The position numbers and the translations under genes are program-made. A stretch of DNA of 49,224 nt, from the IMG/VR virus record IMGVR_UViG_2563366934_000004. One strand, written 5' to 3'. A model generated the notes under the pieces. The model did no database searches and was not told the DNA's origin. It was given only the letters and a program-made list of their open reading frames with translations. Every line of letters starts with the position of its first letter. The stretch's first letter is position 1. This document shows positions 3,308-44,832 of the stretch, piece by piece. Source of the stretch: a virus. Taxonomy: Duplodnaviria > Heunggongvirae > Uroviricota > Caudoviricetes.

Positions 3308-3883
3308 CTACGGCAGTGCTGGCCATTCAATATCCTGTGCAGTTGACGTATCAACACGGTTCAGCAATACCCGATACTTTTTCCATGCTTCCAGCAACGA
3401 GATTTCTTCCTCCGTTGCAATTTCCAGATCTGCAGCATCCTGAAGCGGCGCAATATGCTCACTGGCTACCTGCATCAGGTTGTTTTTTGTTTCTTCCGCC
3501 TCCCGGATCCGGAACAGTTTTTCTGCTTCCGTATCCTTCACCCAAGCTGTGCCGTTCCACTTCTGAAACTCCCCTTCCGGCGATAACCAGGTAACATTTT
3601 CCGGTAACGGACCGAGTTCAGAAATAAATAACGCGTCGCCGGAAGCCACGTCATAGACGGTTTTTCCCCGATGATCTTCAACGAGATGCCACGATGCCTC
3701 ATCACTGTTGAAAACAGCCACGAAGCCTGCCGGAATATCTGGCGGTGCAATATCGGTACTGTTTGCTGGCAGACCTGTATGAGGCGGAATATATGCGTCA
3801 CCTTCACCAATAAATTCATTAGTTCCGGCCAGCAGATTATAAATTTTTATGGTCCGTGCTTGTTCACTCATTCTGAATGCCAT
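3308..3883 (-). CDS. tfa: Tail fibre assembly protein (Tfa chaperone)
   Basis: 191 aa; ATG overlaps stf stop by 1 nt (TAATG); Tfa-like sequence immediately downstream of stf. Confidence 0.85.
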
Positions 3884-27545: not shown

Positions 27546-27816
27546 AATGTTACCGTAATATGTGAGTATCCATCGACTAGACACTAAGCAAAAAAGCTCC
27601 CGAAGGAGCCTTCATTTTCACTTTCTTAAATCTAACGACAGATGGCTAACATTTAAGTATTGTGAAATATTATCAAATGTAATCATCATTGATTTACAAA
27701 AGATACATTTTGCCCCGAAAGGATTTCTGTCAGAAACATCAAAAGATGATGTTCTATACTGAGAACCATGGCAACACGGGCATCTAAAGTGAATATGGTT
27801 TGTAATATTTTCTACC

Positions 27817-28029
27817 TCAAAGTGCCACTACATGAACAGCTGCAGGGCCTTTAGGTCCGTTCTCAATACCAAATTCGACTTCCTGATTCTCAGTTAACGT
27901 TTTGAAATCGTTGCTCTGAATAGCTGAGAAATGCACAAACACATCTTTGCTACCATCTTTCGGCGTGATGAAACCAAAACCTTTTTCAGGGTTAAACCAT
28001 TTCACTAAACCAGTCATTTTGTTAGACAT
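27817..28029 (-). CDS. cspI: Cold shock protein (CspA family)
   Basis: 70 aa; [21 protein letters not shown]... with RNP1/RNP2 motifs; long upstream leader typical of csp genes. Confidence 0.9.
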
Positions 28030-28392
28030 CATTATTACCTTTTGAAGAAGTTAGCCCTTGGGCAGAATGGTCCGAAAAAAAATATCAGAGAGAAAAACCA
28101 ACAAGGAAATCTCAAGAGGTACAAATAATAAAATTATAACAATGACTGCTTCAGATAATTTTGTAACAAACCAGAACACCATTAACGCATGATTAACCAA
28201 CCATAGCAAGGATTACTTTTGTAAAGAAAAACACACGAATGAAACAATAGCTTTATTTATTAATAAAACGTGTCATTCTGTCTAATGACCTTTTATCTTA
28301 CCCTTAAGATTTCAAGGATTTTGACTCATGGAAGAGTCCTTTTTATTTAAATTTCACATTCAGCGCTAAAAATAATCCGATTTAATATTAAT

Positions 28393-30199: not shown

Positions 30200-30595
30200 C
30201 TAACCTCGCATGTCAAAGCCAGATTTCTGAAAATCTCTGTAGACTTCCGGATTGTTGAAGGCCGGAAATTTGGCTTTATGAGCTGCGGACTTTATCGCTT
30301 CGCAATAGGCTTTATCACCGTTACTGGTAGATATTTTTAACGCCGTGCCATCCTGAGAGAATTCCATATGCAACCTGCATTTTTTCCCTTTCCAGTTATG
30401 CGGCTCATCAAGTTTGGCATTAATTGCAGCTCTGATTCCCCGCGCTTGCGCCCCCCATTCATCCTGATCATCCCAGCGTCCTGAACTACAACTACCTGTA
30501 GCAGTAGTTTTGTGGCAATCTGAAGGGTGTAAAGGTGTGCATCCCGCAACAAAACCGACCCAAAAAGTCAACATAACGATTTTCTTTAATCCCAC
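30200..30595 (-). CDS. Lipoprotein with TolA C-terminal (domain III)-like fold
   Basis: 131 aa; GTG start with GAGGAG RBS; signal peptide + lipobox VAGC; C-terminal region aligns with TolA domain III pattern (GKKCRLHMEFSQDGTALKIS..GDKAYCEAIKSAA...NNPEVYRDF). Confidence 0.6.
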   Translation of the reverse strand: MGLKKIVMLTFWVGFVAGCTPLHPSDCHKTTATGSCSSGRWDDQDEWGAQARGIRAAINAKLDEPHNWKGKKCRLHMEFSQDGTALKISTSNGDKAYCEAIKSAAHKAKFPAFNNPEVYRDFQKSGFDMRG

Positions 30596-30745: not shown

Positions 30746-31174
30746 TCAGGGTTTAAAATCCAGCACCCCATTTTGAAATACTTTATATACTTCCGGCGAA
30801 GGGGGGGCAGGTATATCAGCATTCTTTATCGCATTCATCGCTTCACGACATAAATCGAGGTCTCCACTTTCTCTTTTAACCTCCAGTAGAAGGCCATTCG
30901 GGGCCATATGCATTCTCAGTGTACACTCTTTTCCTGAATACTTACTCGCATCCCCGAACTGTTTTTCGATGGCGCTCTTGATTTGATGGGCATACAGACG
31001 GATATCCTCACTAACATCAGAAGTACGTTCAGATGAACTCACATACTGTGTCTCTATTGCTTTATCGGAGTAATATGATGTACGGTCATGATAATTTGTC
31101 GATACAGCATCAGTGCACCCGATAATAATCCCACTAATAATCAACGTAAGAATTGATGCGCTACGAAAACCCAT
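30746..31174 (-). CDS. Lipoprotein with TolA C-terminal (domain III)-like domain
   Basis: 142 aa; ATG with GAGGA RBS; lipobox IIGC; C-terminus YAHQIKSAIEKQFGDASKYSGKECTLRMHMAPNGLLLEVKRESGDLDLCREAMNAIKNADIPAPPSPEVYKVFQNGVLDFKP closely parallels recalled E. coli TolA C-terminus (...GQIKSAIESKF.DAS.YAGKTCTLRIKLAPDGMLLDIKPEGGDPALCQAALAAAKLAKIPKPPSQAVYEVFKNAPLDFKP). Confidence 0.7.
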   Translation of the reverse strand: MGFRSASILTLIISGIIIGCTDAVSTNYHDRTSYYSDKAIETQYVSSSERTSDVSEDIRLYAHQIKSAIEKQFGDASKYSGKECTLRMHMAPNGLLLEVKRESGDLDLCREAMNAIKNADIPAPPSPEVYKVFQNGVLDFKP

Positions 31175-32024
31175 TTTTCCTCACATATGTCATATAGTAA
31201 AGGATTATATATACCGTTGTTTTGGACGCTCAAACAGCGAATCAGATCAAATAAAACGCACATTTGTTAACATTTACACAAAGTCTGCGTGGGATATTCT
31301 GAAAGAATATCCATAATGTGGAGAGAATCTATTAAAGTGCATGGTGCCGGATGCCTCCCGGTGAATTCAGTACCAGCACCTGAATCCGCGATTATCCCAT
31401 ATACCTACTCGCTGATTGCCCCTCCGCACAGGGGGATTCACCATGCCAGTTTCTTTTAACAAACTCCCCGCAAACCAGAGAACAGTCAACCGCCTGAATT
31501 GTGAAGTATTTAAAAATTTCTCCCGCTAACTGATACCCGGCTAACAGTCTGGCGTTTTCTTTTTCAGCAACGGGAAAGCAACAACCACCACACCCGCCAC
31601 CAGCACACCGTCAGCCAGCACTGACATTATCCGGCTGCTGCAATGCCATTCACAAAAACAGTAAGCAATCACTTTTTACCGTAACAGGTGATAATCCAGA
31701 TATGTATCTACCCCAGATGAGTAATCCGAAGTTCATCCATACCACAGGTCCTGGCTATTCTGTTGTACTCCTGAACAAGAGCAAATAATTCTGAATTAGC
31801 AACCATGAACTCATCGCAAACCCTCTGTATAGCATCACTATTCAGAATAATAACGTCTCTTCCCGAAAGACGATCAGGAGCACAGAACAAAACTGTCAAA
31901 CGGCTGAAGGCCTTTGCTCGTGCTGCATTGACTATATCAATACGCTGCCTAAGGATGAATGATCTTACCCAGCAATAGTGGACACGCGGCTAAGTGAGTA
32001 AACTCTCAGTCAGAGGTGACTCAC

Positions 32025-32324
32025 ATGACAAAAACAGTATCAACCAGTAAAAAACCCCGTAAACAGCATTCGCCTGAATTTCGCAGTGAAGCCCTGAAGC
32101 TTGCTGAACGCATCGGTGTTACTGCCGCAGCCCGTGAACTCAGCCTGTATGAATCACAGCTCTACAACTGGCGCAGTAAACAGCAAAATCAGCAGACGTC
32201 TTCTGAACGTGAACTGGAGATGTCTACCGAGATTGCACGTCTCAAACGCCAGCTGGCAGAACGGGATGAAGAGCTGGCTATCCTCCAAAAGGCCGCGACA
32301 TACTTCGCGAAGCGCCTGAAATGA
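32025..32324 (+). CDS. insE: IS3 transposase OrfA (InsE)
   Basis: [32 protein letters not shown]... HTH + leucine zipper; matches recalled IS3 InsE. Confidence 0.9.
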
Positions 32325-33187
32325 AGTATGTCTTTATTGAAAAACATCAGGCTGAGTTCAGCATCAAAGCAATGTGCCGCGTGCTCCGGGTGGCCCGCAG
32401 CGGCTGGTATACGTGGTGTCAGCGGCGGACAAGGATAAGCACGCGTCAGCAGTTCCGCCAACACTGCGACAGCGTTGTCCTCGCGGCTTTTACCCGGTCA
32501 AAACAGCGTTACGGTGCCCCACGCCTGACGGATGAACTGCGTGCTCAGGGTTACCCCTTTAACGTAAAAACCGTGGCGGCAAGCCTGCGCCGTCAGGGAC
32601 TGAGGGCAAAGGCCTCCCGGAAGTTCAGCCCGGTCAGCTACCGCGCACACGGCCTGCCTGTGTCAGAAAATCTGTTGGAGCAGGATTTTTACGCCAGTGG
32701 CCCGAACCAGAAGTGGGCAGGAGACATCACGTACTTACGTACAGATGAAGGCTGGCTGTATCTGGCAGTGGTCATTGACCTGTGGTCACGTGCCGTTATT
32801 GGCTGGTCAATGTCGCCACGCATGACGGCGCAACTGGCCTGCGATGCCCTGCAGATGGCGCTGTGGCGGCGTAAGAGGCCCCGGAACGTTATCGTTCACA
32901 CGGACCGTGGAGGCCAGTACTGTTCAGCAGATTATCAGGCGCAACTGAAGCGGCATAATCTGCGTGGAAGTATGAGCGCAAAAGGTTGCTGCTACGATAA
33001 TGCCTGCGTGGAAAGCTTCTTTCATTCGCTGAAAGTGGAATGTATCCATGGAGAACACTTTATCAGCCGGGAAATAATGCGGGCAACGGTGTTTAATTAT
33101 ATCGAATGTGATTACAATCGGTGGCGGCGGCACAGTTGGTGTGGCGGCCTCAGTCCGGAACAATTTGAAAACAAGAACCTCGCTTAG
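32321..33187 (+). CDS. insF: IS3 transposase OrfB (InsF; DDE integrase-like, expressed as OrfAB by -1 frameshift)
   Basis: 288 aa overlapping the orfA stop; DDE-type catalytic region. Confidence 0.9.
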
Positions 33188-33432
33188 GCCTGTGTCCATA
33201 TTACGTGGGTAGGATCAGAAACACCCCGACGCCTCATCAATATTCACTCTACCCACACCATATGAATGATAAATATTTAATGCTGAAAAAACCATTAGAC
33301 CGTATAACAAACACTCAATCAATACTTAACAGAACTTTTATTTTTGACAAACATATTATGTTTTCAACAATATCCTGAGCCAGGTATATTCCAGTATAAG
33401 GCTCTGCCGGAAGGAATCTGGAAGAATGAATA

Positions 33433-33509
33433 TGGCGCGCTGTACTGGATTCGAACCAGTGACCGATTGCTTAGAAGGCAATTGCTCTGTCCGGCTGAGC
33501 TAACAACGC
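33433..33509 (-). tRNA. argO: tRNA-Arg (anticodon UCU)
   Basis: 77 nt; cloverleaf folded by hand: acceptor GCGTTGT/ACAGCGC, D-arm GCTC/GAGC, anticodon arm ATTGC-CTTCTAA-GCAAT, T-arm CACTG-GTTCGAATCC-AGTA; CCA encoded. Confidence 0.8.
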
Positions 33510-33522
33510 TGAATACCGATAA

Positions 33523-33602
33523 TGGACCGCCATCGGGGACCCGCCCCCGCACCAACAACCCTGTTATCGTGTCGTCTGCTCTTCCTGATAAGCTAATGGC
33601 GG
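33523..33602 (-). pseudogene. tRNA-like element with degenerate anticodon arm (possible argN-type relic)
   Basis: 80 nt; perfect 7-bp acceptor stem (CCGCCAT/ATGGCGG) + discriminator + CCA; canonical U8 and D-arm (GCTT/GAGC, GG in loop); but no pairable anticodon stem and a T-arm with 6-nt loop lacking TTC. Confidence 0.4.
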
Positions 33603-33609
33603 TTTGTGA

Positions 33610-33685
33610 TGGTGGCCCTTGCTGGATTTGAACCAGCGACCTGGCGATTATGAGTCGCTCGCTCTCACCACTGAGCTAAAGGGCC
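33610..33685 (-). tRNA. ileZ: tRNA with CAU anticodon, tRNA-Ile2-like (ileZ-type; could also be read as Met)
   Basis: 76 nt; acceptor GGCCCTT/AAGGGCC, anticodon loop CTCATAA, T-loop GGTTCAAATCC, CCA encoded; body resembles recalled E. coli ileX. Confidence 0.75.
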
Positions 33686-33721
33686 GGGAGCAGAATAATA
33701 ACGGTCCGTAATTAATTCCGC

Positions 33722-33749
33722 AATAAAAAACCCGCTCGGCGGCGGGTTG
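33722..33749 (-). terminator. tR'-like rho-independent terminator downstream of PR'
   Basis: Minus strand CCCGC-CGCCGA-GCGGG followed by TTTTTTATT, about 60 nt downstream of the putative PR'. Confidence 0.6.
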
Positions 33750-33788
33750 TAGAAACTCTTCTAACGTCAGGCATAAAAAGCCCATCAT

Positions 33789-33825
33789 TATGACGAATTT
33801 ACCACAGATTCCGGAAAAATCAACC
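33789..33825 (-). promoter_or_regulatory. Putative late promoter PR' (with qut region)
   Basis: Minus strand TTGATT (-35), 16-nt spacer, TAAATT (-10), directly after Q stop; resembles recalled lambda PR' (TTGACT ... TAAATT). Confidence 0.4.
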
Positions 33826-33828
33826 TTG

Positions 33829-34650
33829 TTACCTAGTTACCTTTTTTAACTGCCGCTCAGCCCATGCTTCTTCAATATCAAACCGGGTCACCAGCGCATC
33901 ATAGAATTTCTTAACTGTTTTTTCCCATGACGCGCGTGTTATCTGGTTTGTCACCTCGCATATAGCATTAAATGCCTCCGTTGATGGTAGTCTTTCATAG
34001 CCACGACCACCACAACGCTGGCAGTCTCTGATAACAGGCATACCACGTTTTACCGACTCTTCACGGTGAATGGCGACACCACGCCCACGGCAATCCTTAC
34101 AGGCGGTGGAAACCTCACCCTTTCCGCCACACTCCGGACAGGCAACTTTTACCACCTCCCTGACTTTTTTCCATTCTTCCCAGTAAGACGGATACACACC
34201 TTTCGTACACTTTGCCCATACCGGCGGCTTACCATCCGGATACTGGACCTTGTTTGTAAAAACTACGCTTTCAATAAATTTTTCCCCATAGCAACAAGGG
34301 CACTGCTTTTTACTCGCTGCGCTGCGGGCATAATCCTCAAAAGCGTACGAAGCCATAATGCGCATCACTACCGGTTTTATTTCTGCCGGAAGTTTTCTCA
34401 ACGCCGCCACACGATCGCACCGACTGAGTGCATAATCTGCCAGTAATTCTGTTGCCCGCGCCCTGTCATTCATACTGATGCCCATTTTCCCCAGGAACGC
34501 AGAAAACCCCATCTCAGCCCGATTCTGTGTCATGCCCTGCGCGGCCATCACATCAGTGATACTCAGCGCATCTTTTGACGTTGAAGCCGATGCATCGGTC
34601 AGGCAAGGGGATTTTGGGGAGTAGTATTTCGGTAAATCTTCCAGTTTCAT
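33829..34650 (-). CDS. quuQ: Late antiterminator Q (Zn-finger type)
   Basis: 273 aa, ATG 34648-34650; several CxxC pairs (CPCC, CPECGGKG, CKDCRGRG, CQRCGGRG); located directly upstream of PR'/tR' and lysis genes. Confidence 0.75.
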   Translation of the reverse strand: MKLEDLPKYYSPKSPCLTDASASTSKDALSITDVMAAQGMTQNRAEMGFSAFLGKMGISMNDRARATELLADYALSRCDRVAALRKLPAEIKPVVMRIMASYAFEDYARSAASKKQCPCCYGEKFIESVVFTNKVQYPDGKPPVWAKCTKGVYPSYWEEWKKVREVVKVACPECGGKGEVSTACKDCRGRGVAIHREESVKRGMPVIRDCQRCGGRGYERLPSTEAFNAICEVTNQITRASWEKTVKKFYDALVTRFDIEEAWAERQLKKVTR

Positions 34651-36897: not shown

Positions 36898-37053
36898 TTA
36901 CTCCTCAGGTTCGTAAGCTGTGAAGACAGCGACCTCCGTCTGGCCGGTTCGGATTCGTACCTCGCAGAGGTCTTTCCTCGTTACCAGTGCCGTCACTATG
37001 ACGGTTAAACAGATGACGATCAGGGCGATTAACATCGCCTTTTGCTGCTTCAT
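36898..37053 (-). CDS. hokD: Hok-family type I toxin (HokD/Gef-like)
   Basis: 51 aa MKQQKAMLIALIVICLTVIVTALVTRKDLCEVRIRTGQTEVAVFTAYEPEE; in-frame upstream extension corresponds to the mok-type overlapping frame. Confidence 0.85.
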   Translation of the reverse strand: MKQQKAMLIALIVICLTVIVTALVTRKDLCEVRIRTGQTEVAVFTAYEPEE

Positions 37054-37795
37054 AGCCTGCTTCTCCTTGCCTTTCGGCACGTAAGAGGCTAACCTACATG
37101 TGTCTAGCATAGATATGGCCTCAGATTAATGTTAAGCGTCTTGCCGGACGCGTAATGTTAACTGGGGCTTTTCTCTATCTGCCTTTGGTGTTGATGCCCG
37201 AGGCAGATAGCCTCAAGCACCCGCAGCAATTCTACTTAACTACCGTTACCTCGCCAATATGAAATCAATCAGAAAGGTGATCCATAAGAACAACAGCAAG
37301 ACAATAAATTGCCATTACAGCAGCAATAGCCAGCGCACATTTGAGAACCAGCACCACAACCTCCTGTATTGGACGTACACCAGTCCTGATAAATATGAGG
37401 CTGTCTCGTCAGTGATTCAATACAACTACTGGGTATAGTTTCTATGATTTTGTTCTGTGGAAATGGAAAACAGCAACCAGTCACGACCAGCACTTCTTTA
37501 AACATGCCAAGTCACACGCAAGCCAACATTATAGTTCCCTTTGAGCGAGCAGATGAAGCTAGCAAAAATATTGATCACTTAGGATGCATTACTAACGTTG
37601 CTATGTGTTAACGAACAGGGAGTGGGTCATCAGCATAAATATTTATGCAGTAGGTTTCTTTTAGGACTAGATTAATCAAAAACATTTAGATAAAATTATA
37701 AAATCAAGAAATTGGTGGCAATTAATCTTTAATTGTGCCAGCTGAATTTCGTTATTATAGAAGATTAGCTTTTTTTTGAATATTTGGAGAGTAAA

Positions 37796-38491
37796 ATGTT
37801 AGAACCACCAAAGAGTTATAATGAAATGTTGCCTATGCTCCATAAGGCGACTTTTATTACTACATTTATATTTTACCTATCATTAGTCATTTATGGCTAC
37901 ATGCCATTGGTTGGCATTAATGCCAAGTATATCCCCCCCGTTAAAGACTACGAGGAATTTATTAAATGGATATTAACCTTTGGCATATTACCAATTGCAT
38001 CTTCAGTTTTTTGGTCAGTAATTAGTGGAGCTTTAGATCTACATAATAATGTAGCAAAAATTATTGGAATAAGGAAGATGTGGGATAGTCATTTAATTAT
38101 TAAACCATTAGCAAAAATTGCAGGCGTTACGAGAAAATTAACTACTGATGAATCTCACAAGGTAATGAGTAAACTGTATTACCCAGAAGTTAAAGAGTTA
38201 AAAGACAAACATTACGTTGAACTTTTCTGGAACAAAGTTTATTACTTTTGGGTTTTCTTTGAACATACAGTAATCGCATTTGTTACTATTTTAATAATAA
38301 GTATCGCCAAATTAACAAATATATTCTCTGTTACTGGCTCTTTAATTAATCTTTGGTTGTGGATTATTTCTCTTGTCGCATTTGACTTCCTTATTTTCAT
38401 AGCATCAGTTAAACCAAGAACAGAAAGCCAAGTAAGACAAATACCTGATAGCAAAATAAAAGAATTCTTTAACAATAACAATATTTTTTAA
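37796..38491 (+). CDS. Integral membrane protein (about 4 TM), unknown function; AT-rich cargo
   Basis: 231 aa from ATG 37796 (GGAG RBS 6 nt upstream); four strongly hydrophobic segments; AT-rich codon usage. Confidence 0.6.
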   Translation: MLEPPKSYNEMLPMLHKATFITTFIFYLSLVIYGYMPLVGINAKYIPPVKDYEEFIKWILTFGILPIASSVFWSVISGALDLHNNVAKIIGIRKMWDSHLIIKPLAKIAGVTRKLTTDESHKVMSKLYYPEVKELKDKHYVELFWNKVYYFWVFFEHTVIAFVTILIISIAKLTNIFSVTGSLINLWLWIISLVAFDFLIFIASVKPRTESQVRQIPDSKIKEFFNNNNIF

Positions 38492-38497
38492 ACGAGG

Positions 38498-39157
38498 TTG
38501 ATTTTGAATTATAAAATAAATGGAATAAACATACGTTCAGAAAATGCAGCGAAACCGCACACTATGCCATCTAACTATCTCTGTAAACAGATTGAAAGCA
38601 CTAATAAAAATGGCAATGCCCTTGATTTTGGATGTGGAAAACTTAGATATTCAGAACAATTAGTAAATAAATTTGAAACTGTGACATTTTTAGATTCCAG
38701 AAGACAACTAGAAAGAGTGCAAATTATCAGAGGTGTACAAACCACGATTCCAGATTACGTGATAAATAACTATAAGAATGCTAATATTGTTTCTTATGAA
38801 AATATAGATAAAATAACAAATCATTATGATTTCATACTTTGCGCAAACGTGCTTTCCGCAATTCCATGTGAATCCACAATTCACAAAGTCCTCAGTGCGA
38901 TTAGAGAATTATTAAAGAGTGATGGTGAAGCACTGATTGTCAATCAATACAAAAGTTCTTATTTCAAGAGGTACGAGAGCGGTATTAAACATTTGCATGG
39001 GTATATATACCAAAACTCTCGTAATGCTTTCTACTATGGTTTATTAGATGTGGATACTGTAAGTAAAATATGCTCAGATAATAATTTAGAAATAATAAAA
39101 TCATGGAGCAAAGCAGGTAGTTCATATGTGGTTGTTGGTAAACATATACATATTTAG
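38498..39157 (+). CDS. Class I SAM-dependent methyltransferase (small, Rossmann-type)
   Basis: Motif I LDFGCGKL and downstream FILCANVL motif; starts 7 nt after the membrane-protein stop (exact start uncertain: TTG 38498/38504 or ATG 38564). Confidence 0.6.
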   Translation: MILNYKINGINIRSENAAKPHTMPSNYLCKQIESTNKNGNALDFGCGKLRYSEQLVNKFETVTFLDSRRQLERVQIIRGVQTTIPDYVINNYKNANIVSYENIDKITNHYDFILCANVLSAIPCESTIHKVLSAIRELLKSDGEALIVNQYKSSYFKRYESGIKHLHGYIYQNSRNAFYYGLLDVDTVSKICSDNNLEIIKSWSKAGSSYVVVGKHIHI

Positions 39158-39471
39158 TTTATTTCAACAAATTATTAGAAAGAGTGATTTGCTTGTTAAT
39201 CATTAGCTCGGCAGTGCCGGATCAACATGACCCTGCCACTTAGGCCATTGCCGGTTTACCTACTTTTGTAAGGTTCAGCATGAAGTTTTTATATACTCTT
39301 CCTAATATCAATAGTGATGCTCGCTTATGTTAGCTGCTTCTTGTACATAGTAGCCTTCTCCGACAGTACTGCAATGAGCGGAGAGTAAAAGTCGATAAAC
39401 AATAAGGAGGTTCACAATAAATATTTCTCGGTGAAACTTTCAAAGCATTCTCTGTTTTGCTAAATCGACAA

Positions 39472-40371
39472 TTATAAATCAACAACATTTAGTGTTATAT
39501 CAATATTATTTAGCCTTGCAATCTCTGATGAATCACTTGCTATTTTAGCTTTTAATTTATCAATATTAATCATATCTTCATGGCTTATATAAACCATATC
39601 ACCTTGGTTAACTTTAGATTTGTTCACTATGGCTTGAATAACAGACAAATCATCCATTACACCTCTCATAAATTTCACCATGCTTTGATCTTTGAAGTCA
39701 GATATCGATTTTGAACGTTGCTTACGTTGAATTGTTCCTTTTGTAATTACTTCATTAATTTCTTTTAAACCAGTGAGCATATCAGACAGACTGCCTTCGC
39801 AACTCATCCGATGTTTTATTGCATTGCGATTAATAATATTGAGTATAATTTCGAGTGAATCTTTATCACTCCATGGATGTAATGATGTATAATCATGATG
39901 GCGTCGAATGGCGTCAATCATATCCTGGACCATATCTTCATCTGCTTTATCGCAAAGTTCATTCACGAAATAGCTGGGGTCGATTATTTTACAATAACTT
40001 GGAGTTAGGTATCTTGAGGCTTTACAAAAACCAAAAATATATAAAGTAGAGTATTTATCTTTCAGACTCTCTCCTATTTCATTTGTTTCCTCAAAAGATT
40101 CGATAGTTTTTTTAATTTTTGCTGGACTTGCATTCGTAGTAACTTGAACTGCTATCATGTTTTTATTATCAGCTAAATCAATGGCGGGAAAATTAACTTT
40201 AATCTGATTCATGTTTACCAGTTCACCCATTTTCAGCGCGCGAAACATAAAGATGGTCAATGACTCAATTATTCTTTCCATGTCATGAAAGCCTGCCTGT
40301 TTGCGTTGCGCGATATAAAGCTGGAGTAGTGCAATATCACTCTGTAAGTTTCTAATAAGTGGATCAATCAT
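39472..40371 (-). CDS. Hypothetical 299-aa protein, N-terminal region possibly SMEK-like
   Basis: ATG 40369-40371; AT-rich; N-terminal motif NFPAIDLADNKNMIAVQVTTN recalled (unverified) as characteristic of SMEK-type N-terminal domains; convergent with the membrane/MTase pair. Confidence 0.55.
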   Translation of the reverse strand: MIDPLIRNLQSDIALLQLYIAQRKQAGFHDMERIIESLTIFMFRALKMGELVNMNQIKVNFPAIDLADNKNMIAVQVTTNASPAKIKKTIESFEETNEIGESLKDKYSTLYIFGFCKASRYLTPSYCKIIDPSYFVNELCDKADEDMVQDMIDAIRRHHDYTSLHPWSDKDSLEIILNIINRNAIKHRMSCEGSLSDMLTGLKEINEVITKGTIQRKQRSKSISDFKDQSMVKFMRGVMDDLSVIQAIVNKSKVNQGDMVYISHEDMINIDKLKAKIASDSSEIARLNNIDITLNVVDL

Positions 40372-44416: not shown

Positions 44417-44474
44417 TTTCTGGTGACGTTTGGCGGTATCAGTTTTACTCCGTGACTGCTCTGCCGCCGTTTTT
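44417..44474 (+). ncRNA. dicF: DicF small RNA (ftsZ-targeting) with intrinsic terminator
   Basis: TTTCTGGTGACGTTTGGCGGTATCAGTTTTACTCCGTGACTGCTCTGCCGCC + TTTTT matches recalled DicF; GGCGG...CCGCC terminator stem. Confidence 0.8.
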
Positions 44475-44643
44475 AAAGTGAATTTTGTGATGCGGTGAAT
44501 GCGGCTAAGCGCACGCGGAACAGTTAAAACCAAAAACAGTGTTATGGGTGGATTCTCTGTATCCGGCGTTAATTGTTAACTGGTTAACGTCACCTGGAGG
44601 CACCAGGCACTGCATCACAAAATTCATTGTTGAGGACGCGATA

Positions 44644-44832
44644 ATGAAAACGTTATTACCAAACGTTAATACGTCTGAAGGTTGTTTTGAAATTGGTGTC
44701 ACTATCAGTAACCCTGTATTTACTGAAGATGCCATTAACAAGAGAAAACAAGAACGGGAGCTATTAAATAAAATATGCATTGTTTCAATGCTGGCTCGTT
44801 TACGTCTGATGCCAAAAGGATGTGCACAATGA
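44644..44832 (+). CDS. dicB: Cell division inhibitor DicB
   Basis: 62 aa MKTLLPNVNTSEGCFEIGVTISNPVFTEDAINKRKQERELLNKICIVSMLARLRLMPKGCAQ. Confidence 0.9.
   Translation: MKTLLPNVNTSEGCFEIGVTISNPVFTEDAINKRKQERELLNKICIVSMLARLRLMPKGCAQ

Follow-up and report, generated by a model that had tools for sequence, protein, structure and literature searches.

The tRNA genes downstream of Q in a Qin-like prophage: a probable two-tRNA form of the lambdoid rare-codon cassette

The IMG/VR virus record IMGVR_UViG_2563366934_000004, which was analysed over its whole length of 49,224 nt (hereafter the window), carries two tRNA genes, ileZ and argO, downstream of a late antiterminator gene Q, with the remains of a third tRNA gene, argN, between them. 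Based on gene calls, homologies, the conservation of a promoter motif and codon statistics, this locus is quite probably the standard rare-codon tRNA cassette of Escherichia coli and Shigella lambdoid prophages in its two-tRNA form (ileZ, decayed argN, argO), located at the head of the late operon after Q, the late promoter PR′ and the terminator tR′, and most likely self-contained, i.e. equipped with a sigma-70 promoter of its own. The cassette as such is real, very common and already known, having been described in Shiga toxin (Stx) phages since the late 1990s. It had been correctly located by an initial annotation of the window, whose claims on anatomy and homology hold. As a discovery the locus matters little, and its description is useful mainly for annotation.

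Two tRNA genes and the remains of argN

When the whole length of the window was scanned with ARAGORN, exactly two tRNA genes were called, i.e. a tRNA-Arg gene with the anticodon UCU (tct), representing an argO allele, at 33433..33509, and a gene with the anticodon CAU (cat), reported as Met/Ile2 and representing a tRNA-Ile2-like ileZ allele, at 33610..33685. Both were also called by Rfam (RF00005), with bit scores of 68.0 for the tRNA-Arg and 72.5 for the CAU tRNA (gathering score 29), and both end in a genomically encoded CCA (...GCGCGCCA and ...GGGCCACCA). Since ARAGORN, Rfam and the encoded 3′ ends agree, the initial annotation was right in placing two well-formed tRNAs with an encoded CCA at these coordinates. 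The strand, which it had not given, is the minus strand, shared with the Q-like open reading frame (ORF) at 33829..34650, and both genes lie downstream of this ORF and of a tR′-like hairpin. Minimum-energy folds of the single sequences gave no cloverleaf for either of the true tRNAs, which is a known limit of such folding and was set aside as evidence.

Comparison with known tRNA genes agrees with the identities proposed initially, i.e. an Ile2-like CAU tRNA and a tRNA-Arg(UCU). No difference was found between the CAU tRNA and ileZ2 of Sp5, the Stx2a prophage of Sakai (76/76), nor, across the alignment, between it and ileZ of Stx2a_WGPS8; the tRNA matches K-12 ileX at 68 of 76 positions but the K-12 elongator gene metT at only 54 of 78. 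Its acceptor stem (GGCCCUU...AAGGGCC) contains the pairs C4-G69 and C5-G68, as does that of ileX (GGCCCCU...AGGGGCC), in the place of U4-A69 and A5-U68 in metT. According to work of the Suzuki laboratory on TilS, these two pairs reportedly discriminate tRNA-Ile2 from tRNA-Met. In addition, identical copies of the gene carry the label tRNA-Ile given by the NCBI Prokaryotic Genome Annotation Pipeline. A tRNA-Ile2-like identity is supported by these similarities, and the resemblance to ileX would predict lysidine formation and charging by isoleucyl-tRNA synthetase. In annotations, the gene should be labelled tRNA-Ile2, not tRNA-Met.

The tRNA-Arg(UCU) gene lies downstream of ileZ; order and strand agree with those in the ileZ-argN-argO cassette of the Stx2a phage. 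It is identical to Sakai argO2 at 75 of 77 positions and to K-12 argU at 57 of 77. Its anticodon loop (CUUCUAA) is the same as that of argU, while Sakai argO2 differs from it within this loop. The host genes ileX/ileY and argU of K-12 have the same anticodons as the two prophage genes and presumably the same decoding (AUA; AGA/AGG). In contrast to the prophage-borne genes, which are clustered and of which a genome often has several copies, those of the host stand singly at core-genome positions.

The 100 nt separating ileZ and argO are not a plain spacer. Alignment with argN (tRNA-Arg UCG) of the Stx2a phage and with the Stx2e phage phiP27, combined with folding, revealed an argN-derived pseudo-tRNA on the minus strand (33523..33602, aligning to argN in the direction 33602..33523). 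This pseudogene keeps the acceptor stem, D arm, T stem and CCA; an unrelated 27-nt segment has replaced its anticodon arm, and only 6 nt (GCGGGT) remain of the T loop. On folding, the 27-nt segment forms a hairpin of 7 bp and a loop of 3 nt, which leaves no possibility of an anticodon loop. The relic is visible only by alignment, being called neither by ARAGORN in the window nor by Rfam at E<=10 within 33380-33860. In phiP27, where ileZ and argO are the only annotated tRNA genes, the arm is scrambled in the same way, and the same lesion was found in about 26 of 110 related loci with full flanks, a set pooled from IMG/VR loci with the ileZ core, the window and other related loci. The ‘spacer’ between ileZ and argO should be labelled an argN pseudogene.

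An intact argN, as in the three-tRNA form of phage 933W, is thus absent from the locus (no anticodon arm, 6-nt T loop), which therefore belongs to the two-tRNA, phiP27-type form. The initial annotation had likened the locus to the ileZ-argN-argO arrangement of Stx-converting phages; the homology stands, but since the decayed third tRNA had been missed, the closest match is the two-tRNA phiP27/Stx2e arrangement and not that of 933W. In phiP27 (AJ298298, Stx2e), ileZ, around 100 nt and argO follow each other in the same order and spacing and likewise on the late strand downstream of Q, the module being 92 % identical over 306 nt. The surroundings differ: in phiP27, the end of a DNA methylase gene lies 41 nt upstream of ileZ, and argO is followed by stx2e, whereas in the window tR′ abuts the cassette and an IS3 element and TolA-like genes follow it. 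According to published work, every Stx2 phage has tRNA genes between q and stx, and in Stx2e phages there are two of them (Met, Arg) (PMC7366253).

Phage 933W and Sakai Sp5 share with the window the two true tRNA genes (ileZ 76/76, argO 75/77), a homologous leader of about 40 nt, which there reads TTGCAG-N17-TATTAT, and the location of the cassette between Q/PR′/tR′ and the first late cargo gene. However, their argN (UCG) is intact, while that of the window is dead, and stx2AB lies downstream. They also possess a different Q type, a PR′-tR′ RNA (StxS) of 258 nt compared with about 65 nt in the window, and a distance of around 300 nt from tR′ to ileZ compared with 38 nt.

The decay of argN is in line with a view of all these tRNA genes as hitchhiking relics, i.e. 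captured host DNA or recombination scars that are useless and decay as argN does. The gene is degenerate here and in about a quarter of the related loci, truncated or deleted variants of the cassette exist, and it has been speculated that the tRNAs mark DNA captured in an ancestral excision (PMC7366253). Nevertheless, we regard this explanation as very improbable. Relative to phiP27, ileZ has 1 difference in 76 positions and argO 2 in 77, but the pseudo-argN has around 6 in 81, and the short spacers have 2 in 7 and 5 in 13. The differences in the pseudogene all fall within the D stem and the T arm; phiP27 retains the canonical T loop, and the pseudo-argN of the window is further decayed. This pattern fits a decaying pseudogene between two constrained genes. 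Also at odds with mere relics, both true tRNAs reach full cloverleaf scores and share identity positions with ileX and argU, and the cassette is present in more than half of the complete E. coli genomes, often in several copies.

The late switch and a candidate promoter of the cassette

The initial annotation had placed Q, PR′ and tR′ directly upstream of the tRNAs, which is borne out at the sequence level by the homology of Q, the alignment of PR′ and a terminator call. The minus-strand ORF at 33829..34650 encodes a late antiterminator of the Q-lambda family of 273 aa (Pfam PF03589 Antiterm, E=6e-55), and its relatives are annotated as antitermination protein. In a phmmer comparison, residues 1-113 and 182-273 matched Q-lambda (PDB 7UBM; E=1.5e-40). 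The around 68 extra residues between these matches (114-181), inserted between the N-terminal part and the zinc-ribbon part, are not found in Q-lambda.

Just past the stop codon of Q, alignment with lambda 44489-44659 revealed a predicted lambda-type PR′ on the same strand (33781..33823). It is composed of the −35 element TTGATT (33823..33818), a 16-nt spacer ending in TGg and the −10 element TAAATT (33801..33796), with the predicted +1 at 33789, where a −10-like pause element, AATGAT (33789..33784), begins that is followed by GGG. The resulting order, i.e. TTGATT-16-TGgTAAATT, CGTCAT, AATGAT, GGG, is in register with TTGACT-17-TAAATT, TGACTC, AACGAT, GGG in lambda, where AACGAT is the −10-like element inducing the sigma-dependent pause that is required for Q loading. 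Lambda therefore resembles the window in its homologous Q, the identical −10 element, the pause element, the GGG and a downstream terminator, but it has no tRNA genes at this place, and the −35/−10 spacer of the window, containing the Q-binding element, is unrelated in sequence to that of lambda and 1 nt shorter. PR′ was not called by the consensus promoter scan because it matches 8 of 12 positions (threshold 9); it and the pause element would be expected to function as their lambda counterparts do.

The tR′-like intrinsic terminator at 33724..33748 (minus strand) consists of the hairpin AACCCGCCGCCGAGCGGGTT followed by TTTTTTA. It was found by the terminator scan as a G+C-rich hairpin (33748..33729) of seven pairs, five of them G-C, in front of the T tract, and it also forms the terminal hairpin in the fold. 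Weak Rfam matches in the gap between Q and the tRNAs to the Trp leader (25.6 bits) and isrK (18.1 bits) were rejected, the terminator hairpin alone being aligned, as was a match to Plastid-ycf2, which lies on the opposite strand of a tRNA. Taken together, a lambda-type Q switch is supported, with Q binding and readthrough of tR′ being predicted from the match to lambda. The predicted transcript from PR′ to tR′ (33789..~33724) is only about 65 nt long, compared with around 194 nt for the terminated RNA of lambda; it would be constitutive in the lysogen and, by analogy with StxS or the lambda 6S RNA, could be a small regulatory RNA.

The 38 nt from the T tract of tR′ to ileZ are filled by a candidate promoter of the tRNA cassette (33695..33723, minus strand), recognized as a conserved motif in the leaders of related loci. 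It comprises the −35 element TTGCGG (33723..33718), a 17-nt spacer and the −10 element TATTAT (33700..33695), followed by the 9-nt G+C-rich stretch TCTGCTCCC and then by position 1 of the tRNA. The 110 related loci contain 40 distinct leaders, and every one of these 40 carries TTGnnn-N16/17-TAT(T/C)AT at 8-10 nt 5′ of ileZ, with variable spacer and flanking sequences. The leaders represent at least four upstream contexts, i.e. the terminator of this Q type, a methylase-like end of the kind seen in Stx phages, and two more. A functional sigma-70 promoter would be expected to look like this, including the G+C-rich pre-start stretch typical of stable-RNA promoters. Moreover, differential RNA sequencing of uninduced Sakai has reported a primary start site that appears to drive the homologous Sp5 tRNAs (PMC7547250).

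These data bear on the proposal of the initial annotation that Q antitermination is required for the tRNAs to be made. According to this model, the tRNAs have no promoter of their own, belong to the late transcript from PR′, are made only when Q allows readthrough of tR′, and serve late and cargo genes. Their position on the late strand 38 nt past the T tract, with Q and a lambda-like PR′ directly upstream, is compatible with it, and Q-dependent readthrough would certainly transcribe them. On the other hand, the −35 and −10 hexamers lie at fixed spacing between the upstream context and ileZ in 40 of 40 leaders, across at least four such contexts, and the primary start site of the homologous Sakai tRNAs was published for uninduced cells. 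Therefore, expression by Q alone was probably wrongly deduced, and we hold this model to be unlikely, even though it is the more plausible among the alternatives to a self-contained cassette. Because the leader motif is conserved and a start site has been published for Sakai, the best-supported model is constitutive transcription from an own promoter combined with Q readthrough.

Several points weigh against this model. The candidate promoter matches only 8 of 12 consensus positions, below the threshold of 9, and it was not called by the scan because its −35 element matches at only 3 of 6 positions. The published Sakai start site might not coincide with the TATTAT motif. Furthermore, common ancestry or the demands of 5′ processing might in part account for the conserved leader; the related loci come nearly all from Escherichia and Shigella and are therefore not independent. 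Promoter activity at this locus is predicted from the motif, and both lysidine formation and the aminoacylation identity of the CAU tRNA are assumed by similarity to ileX only. On the plus strand, three promoter-like sites were found by the consensus scan at 33344-33390, where 1.5 were expected; these were dismissed as chance level.

For the self-contained cassette with additional Q readthrough, we infer promoter activity, the processing and modification of the tRNAs and a fitness effect, as follows. In the lysogen, transcripts from PR′ would end at tR′ as an RNA of about 65 nt, while the tRNA promoter just past tR′ would make a precursor from which RNase P and 3′ trimming yield the two mature tRNAs. 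The tRNA-Ile2 would read AUA once TilS has converted C34 to lysidine, and the tRNA-Arg(UCU) would read AGA and, less well, AGG. After induction, Q-modified polymerase would pass tR′ and add to the tRNA output. The benefit would lie in a better translation of AT-rich, horizontally acquired genes in general and not specifically of the late genes. Annotations should not take the tRNAs to be unexpressed in the lysogen. Were the promoter active, a Qin-like prophage residing in the host would permanently increase its supply of AUA and AGA/AGG decoders, which could ease the expression of other AT-rich acquired genes, including the lysogen-expressed cargo of the prophage itself.

Codon demand of the prophage genes

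The initial annotation had pointed out that the two tRNAs decode the rare codons AUA and AGA/AGG. Codon usage in the prophage was compared with a reference of 42 K-12 core genes (14,790 codons), in which ATA occurs 2.4, AGA 1.2, AGG 0.7, CGA 2.6 and CGG 3.5 times per 1000 codons (all values below are given on this scale). AUA and AGA/AGG are indeed enriched in the prophage genes; the link to the late genes turned out to be weak, with the peak of the demand in the early region.

In the late structural genes (3308-25914), ATA reaches 4.3, AGA 3.4, AGG 3.4, CGA 6.4 and CGG 15.2, corresponding to odds ratios of 1.8 for ATA and 3.6 for AGA and AGG together. The most enriched rare codon in these genes is CGG (odds ratio 4.4), and CGA has an odds ratio of 2.4. 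A tuning of the tRNAs to the late structural genes was rejected, as ATA is near the host level and the enrichment concerns mainly CGG and CGA. These are the codons that an intact argN (UCG) would read, a gene which is dead in this prophage.

The lysis and cargo genes after the tRNAs show 13.9 for ATA, 12.8 for AGA, 3.2 for AGG, 2.1 for CGA and 5.3 for CGG. Their enrichment (odds ratios of 5.8 for ATA and 8.6 for AGA/AGG) just downstream of the tRNAs is a further point in favour of expression by Q alone. However, the late structural genes are only mildly enriched in ATA, and the strongest demand comes from genes of the early region, outside the late operon. There, in a cargo block at 37796-40371, ATA reaches 44.2, AGA 17.4 and AGG 4.0, while CGA and CGG stand at 1.3 each, with odds ratios of 19 for ATA and 11.5 for AGA and AGG together. 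Overall, the tRNAs fit the needs of AT-rich acquired genes generally and not those of the late genes in particular.

The early-region block is AT-rich and contains three genes, encoding a hypothetical protein (plus strand), an S-adenosylmethionine-dependent methyltransferase (plus strand) and a SMEK-domain protein (minus strand). It has the appearance of cargo expressed in the lysogen, perhaps a defence island, and draws most heavily on the two prophage tRNAs.

Spread and variants of the cassette, and its prophage context

An 801-nt query covering the locus matched 3078 of 5426 complete E. coli genomes; the number of matching places per genome has a median of 2 and a maximum of 13, and in 777 genomes one place covers at least 80 % of the query. 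A gene for an antitermination protein lies within the same match in all E. coli matches listed. The query also matched 289 phage records, mostly of Stx phages, and phage mEp460_ev081 shares a stretch of 783 nt surrounding the tRNAs with 100 % identity. In a set of 185,579 species representatives, exact copies of the ileZ core were confined to Escherichia, Shigella and two metagenome-assembled genomes of doubtful assignment, i.e. L133, assigned to Proteobacteria, and L138, a contig of an ‘uncultured Collinsella sp.’; contamination with, or mis-binning of, Escherichia prophage DNA is the likely explanation for both. Further tRNA genes downstream of Q have been reported in SfI, Sf6, ST64T, PS3 and phage 21 (PMC3636060). 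A search of the full-text literature gave no match for ileZ, argN and argO, and some papers on Stx phages do not mention the tRNA genes downstream of Q.

Among the 110 loci, the layout ileZ-argN-argO is the most frequent (53/110), followed by ileZ-gap-argO in 31 and by a four-tRNA form, ileZ-Lys-Thr-Gly, in 12, with smaller classes making up the remainder. The middle slot varies on a single scaffold with the same CCGCCA(T/C)...(A/G)TGGCGG acceptor stem (L018, L022, L032, L098, L105 and others), where we observed Arg(UCG), Arg(UCU) by a single anticodon change, Lys(UUU), relics with an 80-nt deletion, and the scrambled form of the window.

Elsewhere, phage tRNAs can act as counter-measures to tRNA-cleaving systems, and the cassette might mainly serve to counter tRNA-cleaving toxins or defence nucleases (e.g. 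colicin D, which attacks tRNA-Arg, or anticodon nucleases directed at tRNA-Lys) by supplying replacement or resistant tRNAs. Circumstantially, this would agree with the middle slot changing between Arg(UCG), Arg(UCU), Lys(UUU) and dead forms on one scaffold, and with the difference between Sakai argO2 and argO of the window falling inside the anticodon loop. We nevertheless give this explanation very little weight, since the anticodons correspond to the classic set of rare codons, and these very codons are strongly enriched in the prophage genes. Furthermore, the anticodon loop of the window tRNA-Arg is identical to that of the host argU, and therefore no resistance change is evident. A similarly slim chance is given to the idea that the pseudo-argN is a processed tRNA-like RNA with a new role, e.g. 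as a decoy or substrate for a tRNA-targeting enzyme or as a processing signal, in which case the varying middle slot could reflect an arms race with tRNA-cleaving toxins or defence systems.

In place of stx, the initial annotation had named IS3 and TolA-like lipoprotein genes downstream of the tRNAs, and both were confirmed. The IS3 insertion (31960..33217; 1258 bp), recognized by its terminal inverted repeats and its domains, starts 215 bp past the 3′ end of argO in the direction of late transcription. It has imperfect terminal inverted repeats of 39 nt, a 3-bp target duplication (GAA, at 31957-31959 and 33218-33220), and orfA and orfB on the plus strand, carrying HTH_Tnp_1 and rve (DDE transposase) domains. 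The element is 99.3-99.8 % identical to IS3-annotated copies among the matches listed. At this site, IS3 was found in none of the 5426 complete E. coli genomes, and it is absent from the locus in the relatives L002, L003 and L005. With its ends intact, the insertion is specific to this genome and stands between PR′ and the tRNAs on one side and all late genes on the other; its transposase is antisense to late transcription.

The two genes for TolA C-terminal-domain lipoproteins (30746..31174 and 30200..30595, both on the minus strand) were assigned by Pfam PF06519 (E=2e-23 and 1e-14), and their products contain the lipobox-like motifs IIGC and VAGC near the N termini. In relatives without IS3 they directly follow the tRNAs, and their order is the same in L002, L003 and L005. 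An Rfam match to the small RNA STnc100 at 31285-31475 (minus strand; 108.9 bits, gathering score 47) adjoins the 5′ side of the first of these genes and may be the 5′ leader of the gene at 30746..31174 rather than a free small RNA. Just beyond the insertion point of IS3, at 31854-31872 (minus strand), lies a weak terminator-like hairpin, CGTCTTTCGGGAAGAGACG, followed by TTATTATT, which is a possible end point of transcripts from the tRNA promoter in relatives without IS3.

The window as a whole is a full-length lambdoid (Qin/mEp460-like) prophage between ydfJ and rspB, i.e. at the site of Qin in K-12. Its genes include int, xis, exo, dicB, DicF, cI/cro-like genes, hokD/sok, rem, ydfU, rusA and Q, after which the tRNAs, the two TolA-like genes, essD-ydfR-rrrQ-rzpQ, cspI, gnsB, the terminase genes and the head and tail genes follow. 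With K-12 Qin it shares pinQ, tfaQ, gnsB, cspI, rzpQ, rrrQ, ydfR, ydfU, rem, hokD/sok, DicF, dicB and ydfD. K-12 Qin is not known to possess the structural genes and these tRNAs, whereas the window is a full-length form that includes the tRNA cassette as well as the genes for head, tail and terminase. Other Rfam matches are typical of Qin-like prophages as well, i.e. IS009 inside tfaQ (3342-3540), the cspA-type thermoregulator leader of cspI (27771-28187) and the sok antitoxin of hokD (37048-37222), all on the minus strand, and DicF (44418-44469) on the plus strand.

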